Virus record (IMG/VR): IMGVR_UViG_3300021962_000040
Span: 1 to 64,000 of that record
Source: a virus
DNA: 64,000 nt
Direction: 5' to 3' (one strand)
A program made the position numbers and the translations under genes. The notes beneath the pieces are model-generated. The model was not told the DNA's origin, searched no databases, and saw nothing but the letters and a program-made list of their open reading frames with translations. How positions within the stretch are numbered: the stretch's first letter is position 1; the number at the start of each line of letters is the position of its first letter. Below, piece after piece: positions 613-21,884 of this stretch.

Positions 613-1883
613 TACTTCATTGTCATTTTGATGATATCTGGATTCATCATCATCTTGTTAAACTTCTGTTTGTTACCATTAAAGATTGTACGTACTACCA
701 AATACTTTAAGTCATTGGTGAAGTAATCCTTAGTAGAAAGAGAAATCAAACGGTCAGTTACTTTCTGACTAATTGTATTGTCTTTTGCATATACAACTGC
801 ATAGTTAGCCAAACGTGTTGCAAGAGTTGAAGCAATGTCCGCTCTGTAGTTATCACCACTACCAATACAAGACTTAAGTTCACCCAAGATGTATGACTCA
901 TTATCATGTGTCAACAAATCTTTAGGTGTAACCAGCTTGTCCAGTTTGTTATTAATAAATACAGTGAACATGCTTGCAAATGCATCTCCTACAGAACCTT
1001 CACCAATCATTTGGATCATACCTAAGTTATCCTCAAATGAATCAAAGCTAGAAATAGCATTGAAGAAAGTTGTAATAGATCTTGCATTAGTTTCAGTTGT
1101 AACTAATTCAGGATGCATCAACAAGAAGTTAATACAACGTGAGTCAATACCTGCTTCCTCTGCCCAACGTGCCCATACATTAATGTCAAACCTTAAGTTT
1201 GCAGTAATGTAACGTGTCTTTTGTGCAGCATCTACAGAATTAACCATGTAATCACCATTGTCCGGGTTTGATGTCAAGATGATGTGCCAATCTTTTGGAA
1301 GAGACCATGAGATATAAGTCTGACGGTCAATCAATTCCATAACCGCTTGAATAAATCTCACATCAGCACGGTTCCAGTCATCAAGTAATAGAATACCTCC
1401 TTCTTTTTTATCTGCAATCCATTCAGGAGCACAGTAAGACATTCTGTTCTTACCTGTCATCTTATATCCATTCTTTAGATATTCAGATACAGCAAGTTCA
1501 TCCACCCAAATTCCTACTTTCTTAACTACAGTTCCAGCCATGTTAGCTAGATCAGAAGAAGCTGCTGCTCTTTGAGCTGCTGTGTAATTTACTAAATCTG
1601 GAGAGTTTGTTGGCATAGCCTGTTCTTTGTACATCTGAAACTGACGTACAGGAAAACCTACTAAGTCACCAAGCTCCTCAATCTGTGCTAAGTTTAACTT
1701 TACAAAATTTAAATTGTGTTCTTGAGCAAGTTCAACAACTGTTGAAGTCTTACCAATACCTGATTCACCCATAACTTCAATAGCAACCGGTGGTTTGCCT
1801 TGAGCTTGCAAGAATCTGTTGTTGTTAATAATGTGGTTTACGAAACCTTTGAGATCATCAATGTTTAAATTTACTTGTGCCAT
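612..1883 (-). CDS. MoxR-like AAA+ ATPase
   Basis: Walker A GESGIGKT, Walker B LLLDDWNRA, sensor HIILTSNP, D.AQKTR arginine finger; adjacent to a vWA gene. Confidence 0.85.
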   Translation of the reverse strand: MAQVNLNIDDLKGFVNHIINNNRFLQAQGKPPVAIEVMGESGIGKTSTVVELAQEHNLNFVKLNLAQIEELGDLVGFPVRQFQMYKEQAMPTNSPDLVNYTAAQRAAASSDLANMAGTVVKKVGIWVDELAVSEYLKNGYKMTGKNRMSYCAPEWIADKKEGGILLLDDWNRADVRFIQAVMELIDRQTYISWSLPKDWHIILTSNPDNGDYMVNSVDAAQKTRYITANLRFDINVWARWAEEAGIDSRCINFLLMHPELVTTETNARSITTFFNAISSFDSFEDNLGMIQMIGEGSVGDAFASMFTVFINNKLDKLVTPKDLLTHDNESYILGELKSCIGSGDNYRADIASTLATRLANYAVVYAKDNTISQKVTDRLISLSTKDYFTNDLKYLVVRTIFNGNKQKFNKMMMNPDIIKMTMK

Positions 1884-5535: not shown

Positions 5536-6201
5536 TTATAGATCAAAATCATCTCCTGAGTTACCTGAAGTAGGCTCAAACCCAGAAGTTGCTGCTGCTT
5601 CTTTTTTAACAAGCTTTCTTACATGCTCATCATAATTGAAGGTCAACAATCTACCTGCAGTAGAACCAACTGCTTCAAGTGGTAAACCTGTCTTAGATAA
5701 ACGTGGCAAATGTAAATCTACATTTACATAACCATCATTATTTTCCCACTCACGGCCACCAATACAAGCATTAATGTACTCAGTATTTTTGAAGATTTGC
5801 TTACATGCATTTGAAAACTGCTCAAGTGAGTTAGCTTCAATCATATCTACTTCATCTCTCTTACCGGTAACATCTGCTAAGAAAGCAATTGCTTTTACCA
5901 TCTCATCTGCAGCTACAATCTTTCTACCTGTAGGAAGAGTTGTATCTTTATAAGGATAAGGAGACATTCTAACACGTCCAACCTGACCTTGATAACGTGG
6001 TCCATTCTGATTGTCTGCATCTACCAAGAAACCTTGGAATTCTCCACCAACTGGTTCTGTTTCTACATTTAAAATGATATTAAATGCTTGTGGATCATAA
6101 GGGGTAGCATCAAAGCTCAAACTGTTGATTTTTACTTTGTGATTACCTGGTCCAATTACTGGACTTACTCTGTTTGCTGAAACGTTTTTTGTACTAAACA
6201 T
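5536..6201 (-). CDS. putative single-stranded DNA-binding protein
   Basis: PG.H.VKI N-terminal motif, acidic/aromatic tail SGDDFDL, located between AAA_24 and primase. Confidence 0.55.
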   Translation of the reverse strand: MFSTKNVSANRVSPVIGPGNHKVKINSLSFDATPYDPQAFNIILNVETEPVGGEFQGFLVDADNQNGPRYQGQVGRVRMSPYPYKDTTLPTGRKIVAADEMVKAIAFLADVTGKRDEVDMIEANSLEQFSNACKQIFKNTEYINACIGGREWENNDGYVNVDLHLPRLSKTGLPLEAVGSTAGRLLTFNYDEHVRKLVKKEAAATSGFEPTSGNSGDDFDL

Positions 6202-13351: not shown

Positions 13352-13559
13352 ATGAATAAGAAGATCTCTTCCAGGCTCACCCTGGTTGTGGATTTGATTG
13401 AACATAGTTTACTGTTCACCTGTTGTAAGTGCACTACAGAGCAGGGTCCATCACATTATACCTTGAGGCATTTAAAACTTATTGGGTAATTACTCCCATA
13501 AGTCAAGGTTTCTTTCAACGGTGCTAATCTGTCTTATGTAAGAGATCTTTCTTACTCAT
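13352..13559 (-). ncRNA. putative structured ncRNA (~210 nt multibranch) between tRNA-Leu and the helicase
   Basis: Ends pair over ~19 bp (13352-13370 with 13540-13559); internal helices ACCTTGA/TCAAGGT, CTTATGGG/CCCAATAAG, TGAACA/TGTTCA, CCAGG/CCTGG; no ORF in the track. Confidence 0.65.
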
Positions 13560-13561
13560 AG

Positions 13562-13644
13562 TAGCCGGGATGGGACTTGAACCCACACGAGCAAATGCTC
13601 AAGAGATTTTAAGTCTCTCATGTCTACCTTTTCATCACCCAGCT
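13562..13644 (-). tRNA. tRNA-Leu (anticodon UAA)
   Basis: Acceptor AGCTGGG/CCCGGCT, D-loop GGTAGAC, anticodon arm AGAGA-CTTAAAA-TCTCT, long variable arm, T arm GTGGG-TTCAAGT-CCCAT; CCA not encoded. Confidence 0.92.
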
Positions 13645-13647
13645 AGT

Positions 13648-13767
13648 GTGCTGTCTTTCCAGCAGTCATAGCTTTTCTTACAGCTAACCGTGTTCCCTTA
13701 TCTCCAGAGACCAATAGCACCCGTTTATACTTTGGGTACACCAAGTGCTTGTCTTTCCAAGCTGTCA
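13648..13767 (-). repeat. two copies of a TGAC[AT]-GC..GGAAAGAC..GCAC hairpin motif
   Basis: TGACTGCTGGAAAGACAGCAC (13668-13648) and TGACAGCTTGGAAAGACAAGCAC (13767-13745). Confidence 0.7.
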
Positions 13768-13812
13768 CGATTTTACTAGTGTCAGACAATTGTTTTGCCT
13801 CTCATTACCTCA

Positions 13813-14061
13813 CTAGTTTTGGGGAGCCTCTACCTGATTACTGGCATCCATTCCTCCGAGCAGGGGAAAATTTCTTTGTTTCATCTCTTCATCAAGAGCT
13901 TGATCTGGACTATAGATTTTGTTGCATTTACCACATATGTGTGCTTCACCATCTTCAGTCCAAGTATTAATATACTCACCTTCTTTTATATGAGGTGAAC
14001 ATGTTTCACAATTACAGGCATTCTGAGTTCCACAATGGGGACAATAAAAAGCTCCTAACAT
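13813..14061 (-). CDS. Cys-rich Zn-binding hypothetical protein
   Basis: CPHC...CNCETC...CGKC. Confidence 0.65.
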   Translation of the reverse strand: MLGAFYCPHCGTQNACNCETCSPHIKEGEYINTWTEDGEAHICGKCNKIYSPDQALDEEMKQRNFPLLGGMDASNQVEAPQN

Positions 14062-14074
14062 ATTAATAATTTTG

Positions 14075-14148
14075 TGATCCCATCTGGACTTGAACCAGAA
14101 ACCTACAGCTTAGAAGGCTGTTGCTCTATCCAATTGAGCTATAGGACC
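14075..14148 (-). tRNA. tRNA-Arg (anticodon UCU)
   Basis: GGTCCTATAGCTCAATTGGATAGAGC-ACAGC-CTTCTAA-GCTGT...GGTTCAAGTCC...TGGGATCA cloverleaf. Confidence 0.95.
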
Positions 14149-18400: not shown

Positions 18401-18550
18401 TTATTCTAATTTAATGGGTTTTCTACCTGTTCCGTCATCAGCATAGATAACAGTGTTTTCATCTTTTCTAACAATTGCTACATTAAGAGAAGCGGTAATA
18501 AATTCTTTACCGCCTCTCATGTAGTAATAAACAAAAGTTTCTTCAATCAT
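18401..18550 (-). CDS. 49-aa hypothetical protein
   Basis: Manual translation MIEETFVYYYMRGGKEFITASLNVAIVRKDE...; fills the gap exactly. Confidence 0.6.
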   Translation of the reverse strand: MIEETFVYYYMRGGKEFITASLNVAIVRKDENTVIYADDGTGRKPIKLE

Positions 18551-18821
18551 AACTTGTGCAATAGTTTAAGTAATCATCATCATCTCTATCCTGAATTTCA
18601 GCTGCATCATGCATAACTGCTAATTCAAGTAGTTCATCATTCTCTTGTAACTCATCTTGTATTTCTTCATTAGATGGAAATGATACATCTTTAGTAAATA
18701 ATCTTAAAGGTACATCCTGTCCATCAAAGAACCAAGTATAAGTAGCATTTCTAAACAATGCTAGTCCTATCATGTTATCACATGACACGAACATATCTGG
18801 TTTTAGGATTAGAACTTTCAT
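18543..18821 (-). CDS. acidic hypothetical protein
   Basis: 92 aa coupled ORF. Confidence 0.6.
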   Translation of the reverse strand: MKVLILKPDMFVSCDNMIGLALFRNATYTWFFDGQDVPLRLFTKDVSFPSNEEIQDELQENDELLELAVMHDAAEIQDRDDDDYLNYCTSYD

Positions 18822-19045
18822 AGTCTGTTTTTTGTGTTAAGACCTTCTTCTAATTCTGATTCTTCTTGCCACCAGATGGCAATTCCAATTAGTGCTACCA
18901 TATAGGCAACTTGTGCAGCAATAGCCCATATGCTCCATTCAGAGATTGGGTGTGCAAATACACTTCCTAGGGTAATCATACCCTCCATGAATAGACCAAC
19001 TAACCATACTGTGGCTAGTTTAGTCATGAATTTAACTTTCTTCAT
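18818..19045 (-). CDS. two-TM membrane protein
   Basis: Two hydrophobic helices; AAAACCAAA leader. Confidence 0.65.
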   Translation of the reverse strand: MKKVKFMTKLATVWLVGLFMEGMITLGSVFAHPISEWSIWAIAAQVAYMVALIGIAIWWQEESELEEGLNTKNRL

Positions 19046-19172
19046 CTTGATTTGGTTTTAAGTGGGGTTTGTTTTTGGTTTTTCTTGTATACTTTTTTTT
19101 GTTTTTATACACGTTGGGCCGTGTTGCCATTCTGATTTCCTGAATTGTTAGTTCTATCTTTTTCATCTTCAT
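19032..19172 (-). CDS. 46-aa basic micro-protein (ArfA-like motif)
   Basis: Manual translation MKMKKIELTIQEIRMATRPNVYKNKKKYTRKTKNKPHLKPNQDEES. Confidence 0.55.
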   Translation of the reverse strand: MKMKKIELTIQEIRMATRPNVYKNKKKYTRKTKNKPHLKPNQDEES

Positions 19173-19269
19173 AACATTGTTGGCAGATGTGAACTTCATC
19201 ACAACTACAAGTTAATTCTGGGGATATGCTATAAAGCATAAACATATCCATTGCGTCTTCATACAGCAT
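19105..19269 (-). CDS. 54-aa Cys-containing micro-protein
   Basis: Manual translation MLYEDAMDMF...CSCDEVHICQQCYE... Confidence 0.5.
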   Translation of the reverse strand: MLYEDAMDMFMLYSISPELTCSCDEVHICQQCYEDEKDRTNNSGNQNGNTAQRV

Positions 19270-19271
19270 AA

Positions 19272-19502
19272 TTATCCATTTAAGATTTCAATTTCCTTTT
19301 TAACGAGTGCATCAGTAACTTCCTTCTGCATCTTACATGTGTATTCATAAAGCTCAACAAAGTAATAAACATCACATCCGGCTTCATCTATGCACACTTG
19401 ATTGATCTTGTCCATCACCGATTGTAATTCAGCTAGTCTCTTATCTTCACGATTCTTAATCATTTCAAGTGTCATAAAATTTAATTCATCTAATAGTTTC
19501 AT
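19272..19502 (-). CDS. hypothetical protein immediately downstream of the twister ribozyme
   Basis: 76 aa ORF. Confidence 0.6.
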   Translation of the reverse strand: MKLLDELNFMTLEMIKNREDKRLAELQSVMDKINQVCIDEAGCDVYYFVELYEYTCKMQKEVTDALVKKEIEILNG

Positions 19503-19523
19503 ATAAATAGATTTTAATTAATA

Positions 19524-19579
19524 CTGTACCACTCTGTATTTACACGGGCTTGTGACCGTCATTGGCTACATTAGTACAA
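19524..19579 (-). ncRNA. twister self-cleaving ribozyme (type P1)
   Basis: TGTAC-TAA-TGTA-GC-CAATG-ACGG-TCACAA-GC-CCGT-GTAAA-TACA-GAG-TG-GTACA aligns element by element with the O. sativa twister as recalled (CCGCC-UAA-CACU-GC-CAAUG-CCGG-UCCCAA-GC-CCGG-AUAAA-AGUG-GAG-GG-GGCGG), with compensatory P1, P2, P4 and T1 (CA/TG) pairs. Confidence 0.92.
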
Positions 19580-20532
19580 GGGCTGAGTGTTGACCCTTAT
19601 GGCAATAGTTTTAGAATGTTTCCATCCTTTACACACACCAACATTACTGCAGGTATATTGCACGTTCACAGATTTAGATGTCTGCCATCACTACCTTGAG
19701 AGTTATAGTTTCATTTTCACACCAACTTCCTTGCGGGATTCACAGGCTGCCACCTGTTAGATAGATACTACTCACTCTACTTACTATCTGTCTTGCGGAC
19801 GTCAAGTCTGTACATATTTCAGTACAATAAGAACATTGTGTTCCCAAGGTCCAAGAAGGATTTTGCTTTGTCATATTAGTTATGGGATACAACCCTAAGT
19901 TAATAAGAAAAGGATGGATGAAGGAAGTTCTCCTTGGTTGTATAACATGCTTGCTTTTGACAAGTTTAGTTACCAACTCCCTTCTACTTTCAGCGGCCAG
20001 GCTTACTCATTGATTACAATTACTCACGACACGGTATTTCTACCAGCATCTTCACTGTAAACTAATAACAGATCCCCAATTGGCGGTTGGTACTACTGTT
20101 ATCTAACCATACACTTATTACGCTTTCACGCTCAACACCATTTCCATCTGGTGTCTACAACTCTCTTACCCTGTAGGGCCATTCCAAGTTGCAGAAGTAT
20201 GATTACCTTTCAGTGGCATGCTAATGCATGGCCTGTTCTTTCTTAAGGAACAGACTTTATTCCATCACTGGATTATCCTTTGGTCACGAAGGCTGACCTG
20301 TTGTTTCAGTAACCTGACGAGCAGGCTTAACGTACACACCATGAGTATTTCAACTCTGAGGGTAACAACTTGTATACTTATACAGAGATACATGCTAACC
20401 CATTACGTCTAATGGAGCATATACTCTGGATATACATTTAGGTATATCAGCCTATTGGTCTTGTAACTATACTGGACCAACCCACGCCAGCAGCTTACTG
20501 GATATTTGCCTGGTTAAAGGAAAGGCAACAAT
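19573..20532 (-). ncRNA. putative large (~950 nt) highly structured ncRNA
   Basis: No credible CDS; more than 20 hairpins, GCAA/GAAA loops on the minus strand, long-range helices 19909-19918/19621-19630 and 19842-19850/19693-19701. Confidence 0.7.
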
Positions 20533-20536
20533 ACTA

Positions 20537-20806
20537 TTATCTGAAGTTATCATATGGACTATGATAAGTTATTTGGTCAGAGCCAGGGATGTACTTCTCA
20601 AAGGTTACATTAGGACCTTGCCAGTAAACCATCTTGCGGGTTATCTGACACCAAAGTCTTGCCATCCAAAGAGTGGGAAATACAAAGACCCGGTAACCTT
20701 TTCTCATATACTGAAGCTTAAGAAACAGTAGAGAGTAAGTATCCCTAGTAGTGATAGACTCATATGTATTATAAGTGGTCACTATGTATGTTTTTTTCTT
20801 GATCAT
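20537..20806 (-). CDS. hypothetical protein (likely start MIKKKTY at 20806)
   Basis: 3' part of ORF 20537..21025; the 5' extension overlaps structured non-coding sequence. Confidence 0.5.
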   Translation of the reverse strand: MIKKKTYIVTTYNTYESITTRDTYSLLFLKLQYMRKGYRVFVFPTLWMARLWCQITRKMVYWQGPNVTFEKYIPGSDQITYHSPYDNFR

Positions 20807-20917
20807 AGCTATATCTATTATTATGGTGAGACAAGTGGAATGATAGGTTTGATTGTGGTAATATGCGGGGTATTTGGCCACCCACTCAAACAGTAACACA
20901 CAAACAAATAAAAAATA

Positions 20918-20944
20918 AAGCAGTTTTAACTGGTGCTTAGCAGG
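20918..20944 (-). ncRNA. small H-type pseudoknot followed by a U-rich tract
   Basis: CCTG-CTAAGCAC-CAG-TTAAAAC-TGCTT: S1 CTG/CAG, S2 AAGCA/TGCTT. Confidence 0.45.
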
Positions 20945-21094
20945 TAAGTGGTCCTCTTGTACAGATTCATCCGCTATCAACTGGTGAATGTGTATGCAAG
21001 GTGTGTGCAAGGTGGAACAAAGCATAGTTAACTTATCTGCAAGTAACTATGCTCAGTTCCTTCTGGGTTCAACTGGGTTTCCCCAGTTCCTGCT

Positions 21095-21433
21095 TTAGGC
21101 AGGTTCTACCCAGAAGAGGCCTTCTAGTGCCTCCCCAGTTTCACGGTTGACAACAGGATTGTTGCTCAATTGGAAACCTGGGATTTCATCCCCTACATTA
21201 AGTTTGCTTTGCAAGCCTTTAATGGTGGGATGATTGGCTTTCATTGACTCACCGGTCTTTGGATCGGTTAAGGCAAGGATGCCAAAGCTGAGATTCTGTT
21301 GGTTGCGTGCACCAACTTGGAATCCAGCAATCTCAGCCTTTGCCTGTGTCAAAGGTGCTGAGGAGACAATGATGACAGCACTCTGTGTGTCAGCATTGAC
21401 TTTAATCTTACGGAAGAAAACTGATTTGCTCAT
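21095..21433 (-). CDS. hypothetical protein, first gene of the leftward arm
   Basis: 112 aa ORF; hairpin AACTGGGGAAACCCAGTT follows the stop. Confidence 0.75.
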   Translation of the reverse strand: MSKSVFFRKIKVNADTQSAVIIVSSAPLTQAKAEIAGFQVGARNQQNLSFGILALTDPKTGESMKANHPTIKGLQSKLNVGDEIPGFQLSNNPVVNRETGEALEGLFWVEPA

Positions 21434-21623
21434 GGTAAATTATTTTTTTAGGATTAAACTTATGGGGGCCACCCCCCTGTCAAAATTTAGCCGGGGAGCG
21501 GTTCCATAGCACCCCTCAAGAATGCAACACATAAATTGGTTGTAGGTACGGGGGGTATGTGCATCTCTGTAGAAAGATGGGGGGATGGTTGGACGGGGTT
21601 AAAAAATTTGGTATATTAGAAGT
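21434..21623. promoter_or_regulatory. divergent strand-switch region with G/C homopolymer runs
   Basis: Transcription polarity flips here; GGGGGCCACCCCCC, CCGGGGAG, TACGGGGGGTA, GGGGGGATGG in an otherwise AT-rich genome. Confidence 0.6.
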
Positions 21624-21884
21624 ATGGAGAACCGTATAGAAGAGTACATTGATATTGATAGAGCTTACTATAGTTCCTATAGGATAGTGACTAAGAAGAT
21701 TACCTTTGAGGATCTATTAGATGAGGATAGTGATAAAGGTTATTCCACTCTTCTTATACATGATCCTGAGAAGGAGATCACCCCGGATGTTGTGAATGAC
21801 CTTATAGATTATTTTGTGGGGCTGGAGGAATATGAACTCTGTGCTGAATTAAAAAATATCTTGGATAAAAAAATAATATCCTAA
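21624..21884 (+). CDS. hypothetical protein
   Basis: 86 aa; YF..LEEYELCAEL motif. Confidence 0.7.
   Translation: MENRIEEYIDIDRAYYSSYRIVTKKITFEDLLDEDSDKGYSTLLIHDPEKEITPDVVNDLIDYFVGLEEYELCAELKNILDKKIIS

Follow-up and report, generated by a model that had tools for sequence, protein, structure and literature searches.

A twister ribozyme placed to cut a GOLLD RNA free of its downstream genes in a freshwater crAss-like phage

Introduction

What does a self-cleaving ribozyme do within a phage transcript when the unit in front of it is a giant structured RNA? The question is raised by a locus in a window of 64,000 nt (positions 1 to 64,000 of IMG/VR record IMGVR_UViG_3300021962_000040, a phage record of 117,753 b in all), where a sequence-only reading had placed a twister ribozyme about 20 nt upstream of a phage gene. 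It was proposed there that cleavage trims a giant RNA and also gives the downstream message a structured 5'-OH end, which could set the stability of this message.

In the parts of two reviews available to us, what twister ribozymes do biologically is said to be largely a matter of speculation (PMC5408937, PMC6765202), and ribozymes are suggested to split polycistronic transcripts into parts of differing stability (PMC6765202). The fold is described in more definite terms: P1, P2 (with four Watson-Crick pairs) and P4 are the essential stems, P0, P3 and P5 are optional, P3 being dispensable and missing in about 20% of twisters, and the bond that is cut lies between a less conserved U and a conserved A next to P1 (PMC5408937, available part). 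GOLLD RNAs, many of which are longer than 800 nt, form a 14-mer cage visualised by cryo-EM, and the function of this cage is given as unknown (PMC12286853, available part).

By examining the ribozyme and its neighbours in the window, related phage contigs, river RNA data and larger samples of twister and GOLLD loci, we find that the twister directly abuts the last hairpin of a GOLLD RNA. We consider it likely that the ribozyme, a self-cleaving type-P1 twister in a long minus-strand phage transcript, is the 3'-end-forming device of the GOLLD RNA. Such a placement, in which the twister of this freshwater crAss-like phage would cut GOLLD free of the genes downstream, would supply phage twisters with a definite task.

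Results

A complete type-P1 twister without P3

Judged from its sequence, the stretch at 19524..19579 (minus strand) is confirmed as a complete type-P1 twister, lacking the optional P3 and also P5, whose cleavage is a prediction; it is recognised by the Rfam model RF03160 and by a covariance model of our own (R1, described below). Each element named in the sequence-only reading is present on the minus strand. P1 has five base pairs (U19578-C19574 with G19529-A19525), the cleavage motif UAA follows at U19573 A19572 A19571, P2 has four pairs (UGUA at 19570-19567 with UACA at 19538-19535), P4 has three to four (A19559-G19557, plus G19556, with C19546-U19544, plus C19547), and the GAG lies at 19534-19532, while the two pseudoknots are assigned purely by complementarity: T1 joins C19554 A19553 in L4 with U19531 G19530 in L1, and T2 joins G19566 C19565 in L2 with G19549 C19548 in L4. 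The predicted scissile bond, U19573/A19572, is the one proposed earlier, and it is also the position indicated by the UAA beside P1 in the Rfam alignment and by the rule stated in the available part of PMC5408937.

Comparison with the Rfam twister-P1 model had been suggested as a check, and its outcome is divided. The model aligns end to end (model positions 1-68) over 19577..19526 with 56.8 bits, this being the sole RF03160 match in the whole 117,753-b record (E 1.8e-13; 3.3e-12 when 501 nt are searched and 1.5e-11 in 2.3 kb), and every upper-case consensus base is matched, bar one T1 position that is itself compensated. The score, by contrast, falls below the curated cut-off of 67.2 bits, a value that is a database convention and not a structural feature. 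The twister is absent from a gathering-threshold Rfam scan of the window because of this cut-off and because the alignment skips the 16 model positions of the optional P3, in whose place the window has a 4-nt junction.

A loose descriptor (UAA, 4 nt, SC, 4-45 nt, TYNCAAGSS) has a single match on the two strands of the 64-kb window, at 19579..19524, and neither a second intact twister nor any other ribozyme was found in the window by the Rfam scans, this descriptor or R1. The minimum-energy fold of a 61-nt stretch recovers P1, P2 and P4. Its folding energy is ordinary (z -0.82), which is expected because the ribozyme is a small pseudoknotted RNA.

A common phage-borne subclass

When viral contigs were scanned for the twister core, at least 112 loci (L001-L112) were obtained, and a descriptor of P3-less type-P1 twisters found 39 instances, 35 of them unique, among the matches listed for these loci. 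The 35 unique phage twisters and the window's own sequence form an alignment of 36 rows (A1), from which R1 was built. Since the core, T2 and the four P2 pairs were prescribed by the descriptor, they are uninformative in A1; variation was possible in P1, in the outer P4 pair and in one T1 pair. Pairing is found in 93.4% of cells against 76.6% in shuffled alignments (none of 500 shuffles reaches 93.4%) and in at most 46.5% when the partners are slid. All five P1 pairs show double changes, on both sides, and the outer P4 pair occurs as five pair types. At the free T1 pair, all 36 rows are complementary (AU 33, CG 1, GC 1, UA 1), the window having the common A-U. By stem, 80% of cells pair in P1, 100% in P2 and 98% in P4.

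The window twister has all 24 invariant columns of A1 and is scored by R1 at 76.5 bits (E 4.2e-20), a value reached partly by construction, as A1 includes the window row. Searches with R1 left out loci L214, L215 and L315-L319, and loci L164-L212 were searched with R1 and not with RF03160. Together, the covariation in A1, the invariant columns and the R1 score mark the window twister as an ordinary member of a common phage-borne subclass, and thus, on sequence evidence, as a new member of a known ribozyme family.

The members of this subclass also have a characteristic setting. Among the matches listed, a hairpin of at least 5 bp ends 0-10 nt before the UAA in 28 of 36 P3-less phage twisters, against 20 of 175 control windows; this hairpin may be the optional P0 stem of the twister review (PMC5408937, available part). 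Within the same matches, an ORF of at least 60 aa ends a median of 26 nt upstream of the other P3-less phage twisters (within 100 nt in 25 of 34), the next ORF starts a median of 74 nt downstream, and no tRNA was called in the 400 nt upstream of any of the 39. These hairpin and ORF-distance counts indicate that P3-less phage twisters are generally placed just after a hairpin, between two units. The window is a special case of this placement, in that its upstream unit is GOLLD. In the window, the place of the preceding hairpin is occupied by the GOLLD terminal hairpin.

The giant RNA upstream is probably a GOLLD RNA

The giant RNA of the sequence-only reading can now be given a probable name, since the Rfam GOLLD model RF02032 matches full length on 19984..19580 with 88.8 bits (cut-off 150; E 3.7e-23). 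The match, model positions 1-416, places the putative conserved 3' domain at 19580..19984 (minus strand). A variable 5' domain at 19985..20384 (minus strand) is assigned by nhmmer homology and by RNA contigs reaching 20283-20360, and its 5' boundary is uncertain. The score is that of a divergent lake-phage GOLLD clade, which has 55.7-117.8 bits on RF02032, as against 155-332 bits for typical GOLLDs of the same pattern. Relatives of the window GOLLD were found by nhmmer among GOLLD-pattern loci, with a best E of 1.5e-118 among the matches listed; blastn of 19200-20600 against the phage collection gave no match.

An alignment of the clade (11 rows: the window and 10 relatives) shows the conserved 3' domain and, at its end, a terminal hairpin, which is the last helix of the Rfam GOLLD alignment. 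In the window this hairpin lies at 19578..19598 (minus strand) and consists of AAGGG, an 11-nt loop with CUCA, and CCCUU; it is conserved in all 11 rows of the alignment and also in a census of GOLLD loci. The stretch covered by RNA is about 700-780 nt long and the conserved stretch up to 969 nt, and the twister ends a stretch of roughly 1 kb without a credible gene, with genes in the same direction on both sides. GOLLD RNAs come from phages or prophages and are often neighbours of tRNA genes. That the window belongs to a phage record is confirmed, and the nearest tRNAs, at 14148-13562, lie about 5.4 kb downstream. The same region, at 13393-14148 on the minus strand and 5.4 kb downstream of GOLLD, carries a freshwater-1 RNA (75.9 bits, above its cut-off) along with two tRNA genes.

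Between GOLLD and ribozyme there is practically no space: the Rfam alignment to GOLLD runs as far as 19580 and that to the twister begins at 19577, the GOLLD hairpin directly abuts P1, and U19578, the last base of the hairpin, can also form the outermost P1 pair. The predicted cut between U19573 and A19572 would leave a tail of 5 nt on GOLLD. No T-run follows the terminal hairpin in the window, and no terminator-like site was found on the minus strand in 18500-21800.

River RNA covers the GOLLD body

When words sampled from 19300-20560 were looked up in sequencing runs, DNA runs held 0.72-1.00 of them and six river metatranscriptome runs held 0.50-0.55. Four RNA runs (X15-X18), which carry four study codes, are all riverine and date from 2018, so that they may represent one campaign, were mapped as contigs on 19000-20900. 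In all four, the contigs cover the GOLLD body only, at depths of 13-96, with upper ends at 20283-20360 and lower ends at 19580, 19595, 19603 and 19608. These lower ends are 7-35 nt short of the predicted 19573, one contig starting exactly at 19580 (7 nt); the X15 contig ends in adapter sequence. No RNA contig of the four runs lies over the ribozyme, the downstream ORF, 19000-19575 or 20360-20540, an absence of contigs that by itself proves nothing, and over the upstream ORF there is a single divergent contig, at depth 3.

That the flanks are empty speaks against carry-over of DNA. Assembled contigs show neither RNA ends nor strand, and as a weak hint their limits suggest a stable RNA that ends at the ribozyme or shortly before it. 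The downstream stretch is either far scarcer in RNA than GOLLD or unassembled, which fits an uncoupling of the two without bearing on the mechanism.

Another build of twister after the same hairpin

In six related contigs (L183, L184, L189, L200, L259 and L267), which have five distinct sequences, as L183 and L184 are identical in the GOLLD-twister stretch, a complete twister follows 6-8 nt after the same GOLLD hairpin. With the direct abutment in the window and the RNA contigs that end just short of the ribozyme, these relatives uphold the earlier proposal that the twister is placed to trim the giant RNA. Their build differs from that of the window: they have a P5 stem with an insert of 31-129 nt and a T2 of CC/GG, and in the five distinct sequences 5, 5, 4, 1 and 4 of the 5 P1 pairs are formed.

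This P5-type build is widespread. A scan for its 5' half gave at least 118 loci with 111 unique instances; among the matches listed, 97 unique instances have a perfect 4-bp P4, with many pair combinations that covary strongly. The 3' strand of P2 and then GAGNG follow within 400 nt (median 90 nt) in 89 of the 97, and T1 is complementary in 89 of these 89, again among the matches listed; two of the eight instances that lack a 3' half are cut by the end of the locus. The stretch between the halves folds as a long P5 stem. Rfam, at E<=1, detects none of the five P5-type twisters of the relatives, and R1 with filters off detects none of six. The assignment is made by our own descriptor and pair counts and not by a calibrated model; judged by these, the P5-type with a CC/GG T2 is a real twister subclass that Rfam misses. 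A reading of the elements in L183, L184, L189 and L200 as doubtful look-alikes was dropped when matching 3' halves were found far downstream.

Several further relatives vary the arrangement. In L167 a P5-type 5' half stands after GOLLD and the L4 motif is missing; this element is a candidate twister. In L269, the closest relative, a twister (R1 29.4 bits, E 2.8e-5, among the matches listed) closes a longer non-coding island and lies 440 nt beyond GOLLD; the extra stretch of about 440 nt between GOLLD hairpin and twister, L269:1826-1382 on the minus strand, is gene-free and apparently structured. In L163 (= L213) a twister at 6138-6200 (plus strand) lies 2.3 kb downstream of GOLLD, with T1 GA/UC and T2 AC/GU, which are non-consensus yet complementary. 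L200 contains a Pistol ribozyme at 1434-1498 (plus strand; 42.1 bits against a cut-off of 34.5), about 400 nt after its GOLLD-twister pair, and from this match several ribozyme classes may punctuate these phage transcripts.

What follows GOLLD in other phages

All scans of the collection give samples, and the counts that follow refer to the matches listed. Among 74 assessable GOLLD flanks, eight have a tRNA within 40 nt as called by ARAGORN, and six of the eight tRNAs start 9-10 nt after the hairpin; in 30 a T-run comes directly after the hairpin; five, L167 included, have a P5-type 5' half; and 31 were classed as other, many of them tRNA-like by eye. The tRNAs are likely to act as RNase P sites. 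It follows from these flank counts that the last GOLLD hairpin is usually succeeded, within a few bases, by an element that makes an RNA end, and in the phage clade of the window that element appears to be a twister in two interchangeable builds.

The link between twister and GOLLD is not general, whether across GOLLDs or across twisters. Among the matches listed, a canonical twister was found in none of the 74 other GOLLD flanks; twister-P1 was found in one of 50 GOLLD-pattern records, and there 2.3 kb from its GOLLD; GOLLD was found in none of 47 twister-bearing viral records, nor by nhmmer in the remaining loci of the 112; and two scans of viral contigs for the GOLLD hairpin followed by a canonical twister gave 0 and 0. 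Two metagenome contigs matched the latter pattern and were set aside as chance matches, with neither GOLLD nor twister in either.

The region 5' of GOLLD

On the other side of GOLLD, an upstream module at 20390..20539 (minus strand), delimited by nhmmer alignments to L371, L328, L420 and L399, is of uncertain membership in the system. Its first part, 20539-20440 (minus strand), is a conserved element of about 100 nt with three hairpins, which in L328, L371, L399 and L420 is directly followed by an intact P5-type twister. In the window, 20425-20390 (minus strand) matches, in alignment, the 5' half of such a twister, has UAU for UAA and no L4 loop motif, its core being lost, and so may be a decayed 5' twister. 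The RNA contigs begin just downstream of the three-hairpin module, at 20283-20360.

An ORF of 162 aa at 20537-21025 (minus strand) was rejected as a gene: it has no PHROG match, no tblastn match, no nucleotide conservation across 21040-20546 and an odd composition, and the stretch may be non-coding. The ORF of 112 aa that precedes it is conserved in L183 and L167.

The downstream open reading frame

An A/U-rich spacer at 19503..19523 (minus strand) separates the ribozyme from the start codon, and 22 nt (19524-19503) are counted from the last P1 pair to the ATG at 19502, in agreement with the earlier estimate of about 20 nt. The ORF that starts there, of 76 aa at 19272..19502 (minus strand, from the ORF list), is an orphan: it has no PHROG match, no tblastn match in L001-L215 and, among 5.8 billion proteins, no relative beyond its own 99%-identical cluster. 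The next ORF, of 54 aa, is conserved in L189 and L167, and a PHROG scan of ten neighbouring ORFs gave three weak matches, none of them informative.

The ribozyme and the start codon may also interact. In the minimum-energy fold of a 146-nt context (19640-19495), the ribozyme's 3' half pairs with the start-codon region instead of forming the twister fold, 19546-19537 pairing with 19509-19500, AUG included; the P4/J4-2 strand of the ribozyme and the start-codon region could thus form a helix of 10 bp. This helix is A/U-rich, and the fold that contains it is a minor structure (ensemble frequency 0.012, z -0.46).

Discussion

How the 3' end of GOLLD may be made

The preferred reading, in which the twister forms the 3' end of GOLLD, builds on the twister motif itself, the covariation of its subclass, its abutment on GOLLD, the twisters that relatives carry in this position, the missing terminator-like site and a step in RNA abundance near the site. 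From these we infer that the ribozyme cleaves, where exactly it does so, and that GOLLD benefits. While the polymerase moves on, the 56-nt ribozyme would fold co-transcriptionally, forming P1, P2, P4 and the pseudoknots T1 and T2, and would cut at U19573/A19572. Upstream, this would yield the GOLLD RNA, reaching five bases past its terminal hairpin and ending at U19573 with a 2',3'-cyclic phosphate; it would be freed from the message and protected by the terminal hairpin. A 5'-OH on A19572 would mark the start of the downstream product, made up of the ribozyme body, 22 A/U-rich bases and then the 76-aa ORF.

A stronger form of this reading, which we put forward tentatively, would make the twister a dedicated and exchangeable module for 3'-end maturation of the GOLLD cage RNA in this lake crAss-like phage clade. 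Two unrelated-looking builds follow one terminal hairpin at a distance of 4-8 nt, a hairpin that also takes the part of the one usually found before a phage twister, and an exact end, consisting of the hairpin and a short tail with a cyclic phosphate, would let GOLLD accumulate or assemble.

The same cut could serve other purposes. Phage twisters may be generic punctuation, cutting after a hairpin where units meet, with GOLLD an incidental neighbour whose exact end is unselected; this shares its mechanism with the preferred reading and differs only in what is selected for. It draws on the setting of the other twisters of the same build, with their hairpins (28 of 36 against 20 of 175 controls), their close upstream ORFs (25 of 34 within 100 nt) and no tRNA called upstream of the 39, and on the lack of GOLLD in 47 twister-bearing records, all among the matches listed. 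We nevertheless regard it as unlikely, since the finding, across the window and six relatives, of two twister builds in one narrow position behind the shared GOLLD hairpin, together with the tRNA or T-run that other GOLLDs have at this spot, points to a constraint on where GOLLD ends. Alternatively, the downstream message might be the main target, its 5'-OH, ribozyme-capped leader setting stability or translation, perhaps with a switch between the twister fold and the helix that hides the start codon. The mere 22 nt from ribozyme to ATG, the minimum-energy fold that pairs the AUG, and the suggestion in the available part of PMC6765202 that ribozymes create transcripts of different stability are in its favour, but the alternative helix is A/U-rich and minor, the 76-aa ORF is an orphan with no RNA contig over it, and the relatives keep the twister beside GOLLD though the sequence downstream differs; we hold this to be rather improbable.

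Two other readings take the ribozyme out of the making of the end. The GOLLD 3' end could be made by host RNases, or by pausing or termination at the terminal hairpin, with the twister redundant or active on read-through transcripts only. The RNA contigs do stop at 19580-19608, upstream of the predicted cut, and 30 other GOLLDs among the matches listed end in a hairpin and T-run, but the window hairpin has no T-run after it, the minus strand has no terminator-like site, and the ribozyme is intact down to every conserved base, which speaks for its use, so that we consider this very improbable. Least credible to us is a chance look-alike or inactive relic. The score below the Rfam cut-off and the ordinary folding energy would suit it, as would the likely decayed twister at about 20425-20390, from which decay does occur in the locus; against it are an E of 1.8e-13 in the genome, all 24 invariant subclass columns, complementary T1 and T2, and intact P1, P2 and P4.

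Implications

A twister that abuts the last GOLLD hairpin predicts an exact 3' end for GOLLD and offers a one-mutation handle on whether that end matters. The pairing links two RNA classes so far studied apart. If the twister is indeed a dedicated 3'-end module, bacterial or phage twisters would have a first defined biological role, and the true ends of native GOLLD would follow from it. For searches, the Rfam cut-off hides P3-less phage twisters, and the large P5-type subclass with CC/GG is missed altogether.

Comparison with known systems

As a ribozyme, the window twister differs in nothing structural from known type-P1 twisters (RF03160; PMC5408937, available part): it shares P1, P2 and P4, both complementary pseudoknots, the U-A site beside P1 and the conserved bases of L1 and L4, its score lying under the cut-off of a model that expects P3. 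What sets it apart is its neighbour, which is a GOLLD RNA and not a protein gene. As a GOLLD RNA, the upstream unit shares with the known family (RF02032; PMC12286853, available part) a full-length match of the 3' domain, a variable 5' domain, phage origin and abundance in RNA data; it differs in its score (88.8 bits against the cut-off of 150), in its membership of a divergent lake-phage clade and in having its nearest tRNA 5.4 kb away. Other GOLLDs are followed by a tRNA or a T-run, whereas the window GOLLD is followed by a ribozyme.

The placement resembles that of the intercistronic twister and hammerhead ribozymes of bacteria and phages (PMC6765202, available part), as the window twister lies in a co-oriented string of genes, right after a hairpin and shortly before an ORF; the difference is that a giant non-coding RNA stands before the predicted cut, which offers a purpose open to testing. 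The available part of that review calls the purpose of such ribozymes undefined. A literature search found no published link between GOLLD and twister, and the context tables of the primary papers (twister 2014, GOLLD 2009) could already list the pairing; the available text of the GOLLD cryo-EM paper (PMC12286853) has no mention of twister, and that of the theta ribozyme paper (PMC10879173) none of twister or of GOLLD.

The nearest analogue of the arrangement is provided by these theta ribozymes, which are HDV-like, adjoin tRNA genes in gut phages and are proposed to trim tRNA trailers (PMC10879173, available part). In both systems a small cis ribozyme stands beside a structured phage non-coding RNA and is proposed to make its 3' end without host nucleases. 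The ribozyme class is another one, and the cargo, by the available text of the same paper, is a tRNA there, compared with an RNA of roughly 800 nt or more in the window. The products would differ as well: HDV-type ribozymes, whose cut lies right at their 5' edge, add no tail to the cargo, whereas the window twister is predicted to leave five P1 bases on its cargo.
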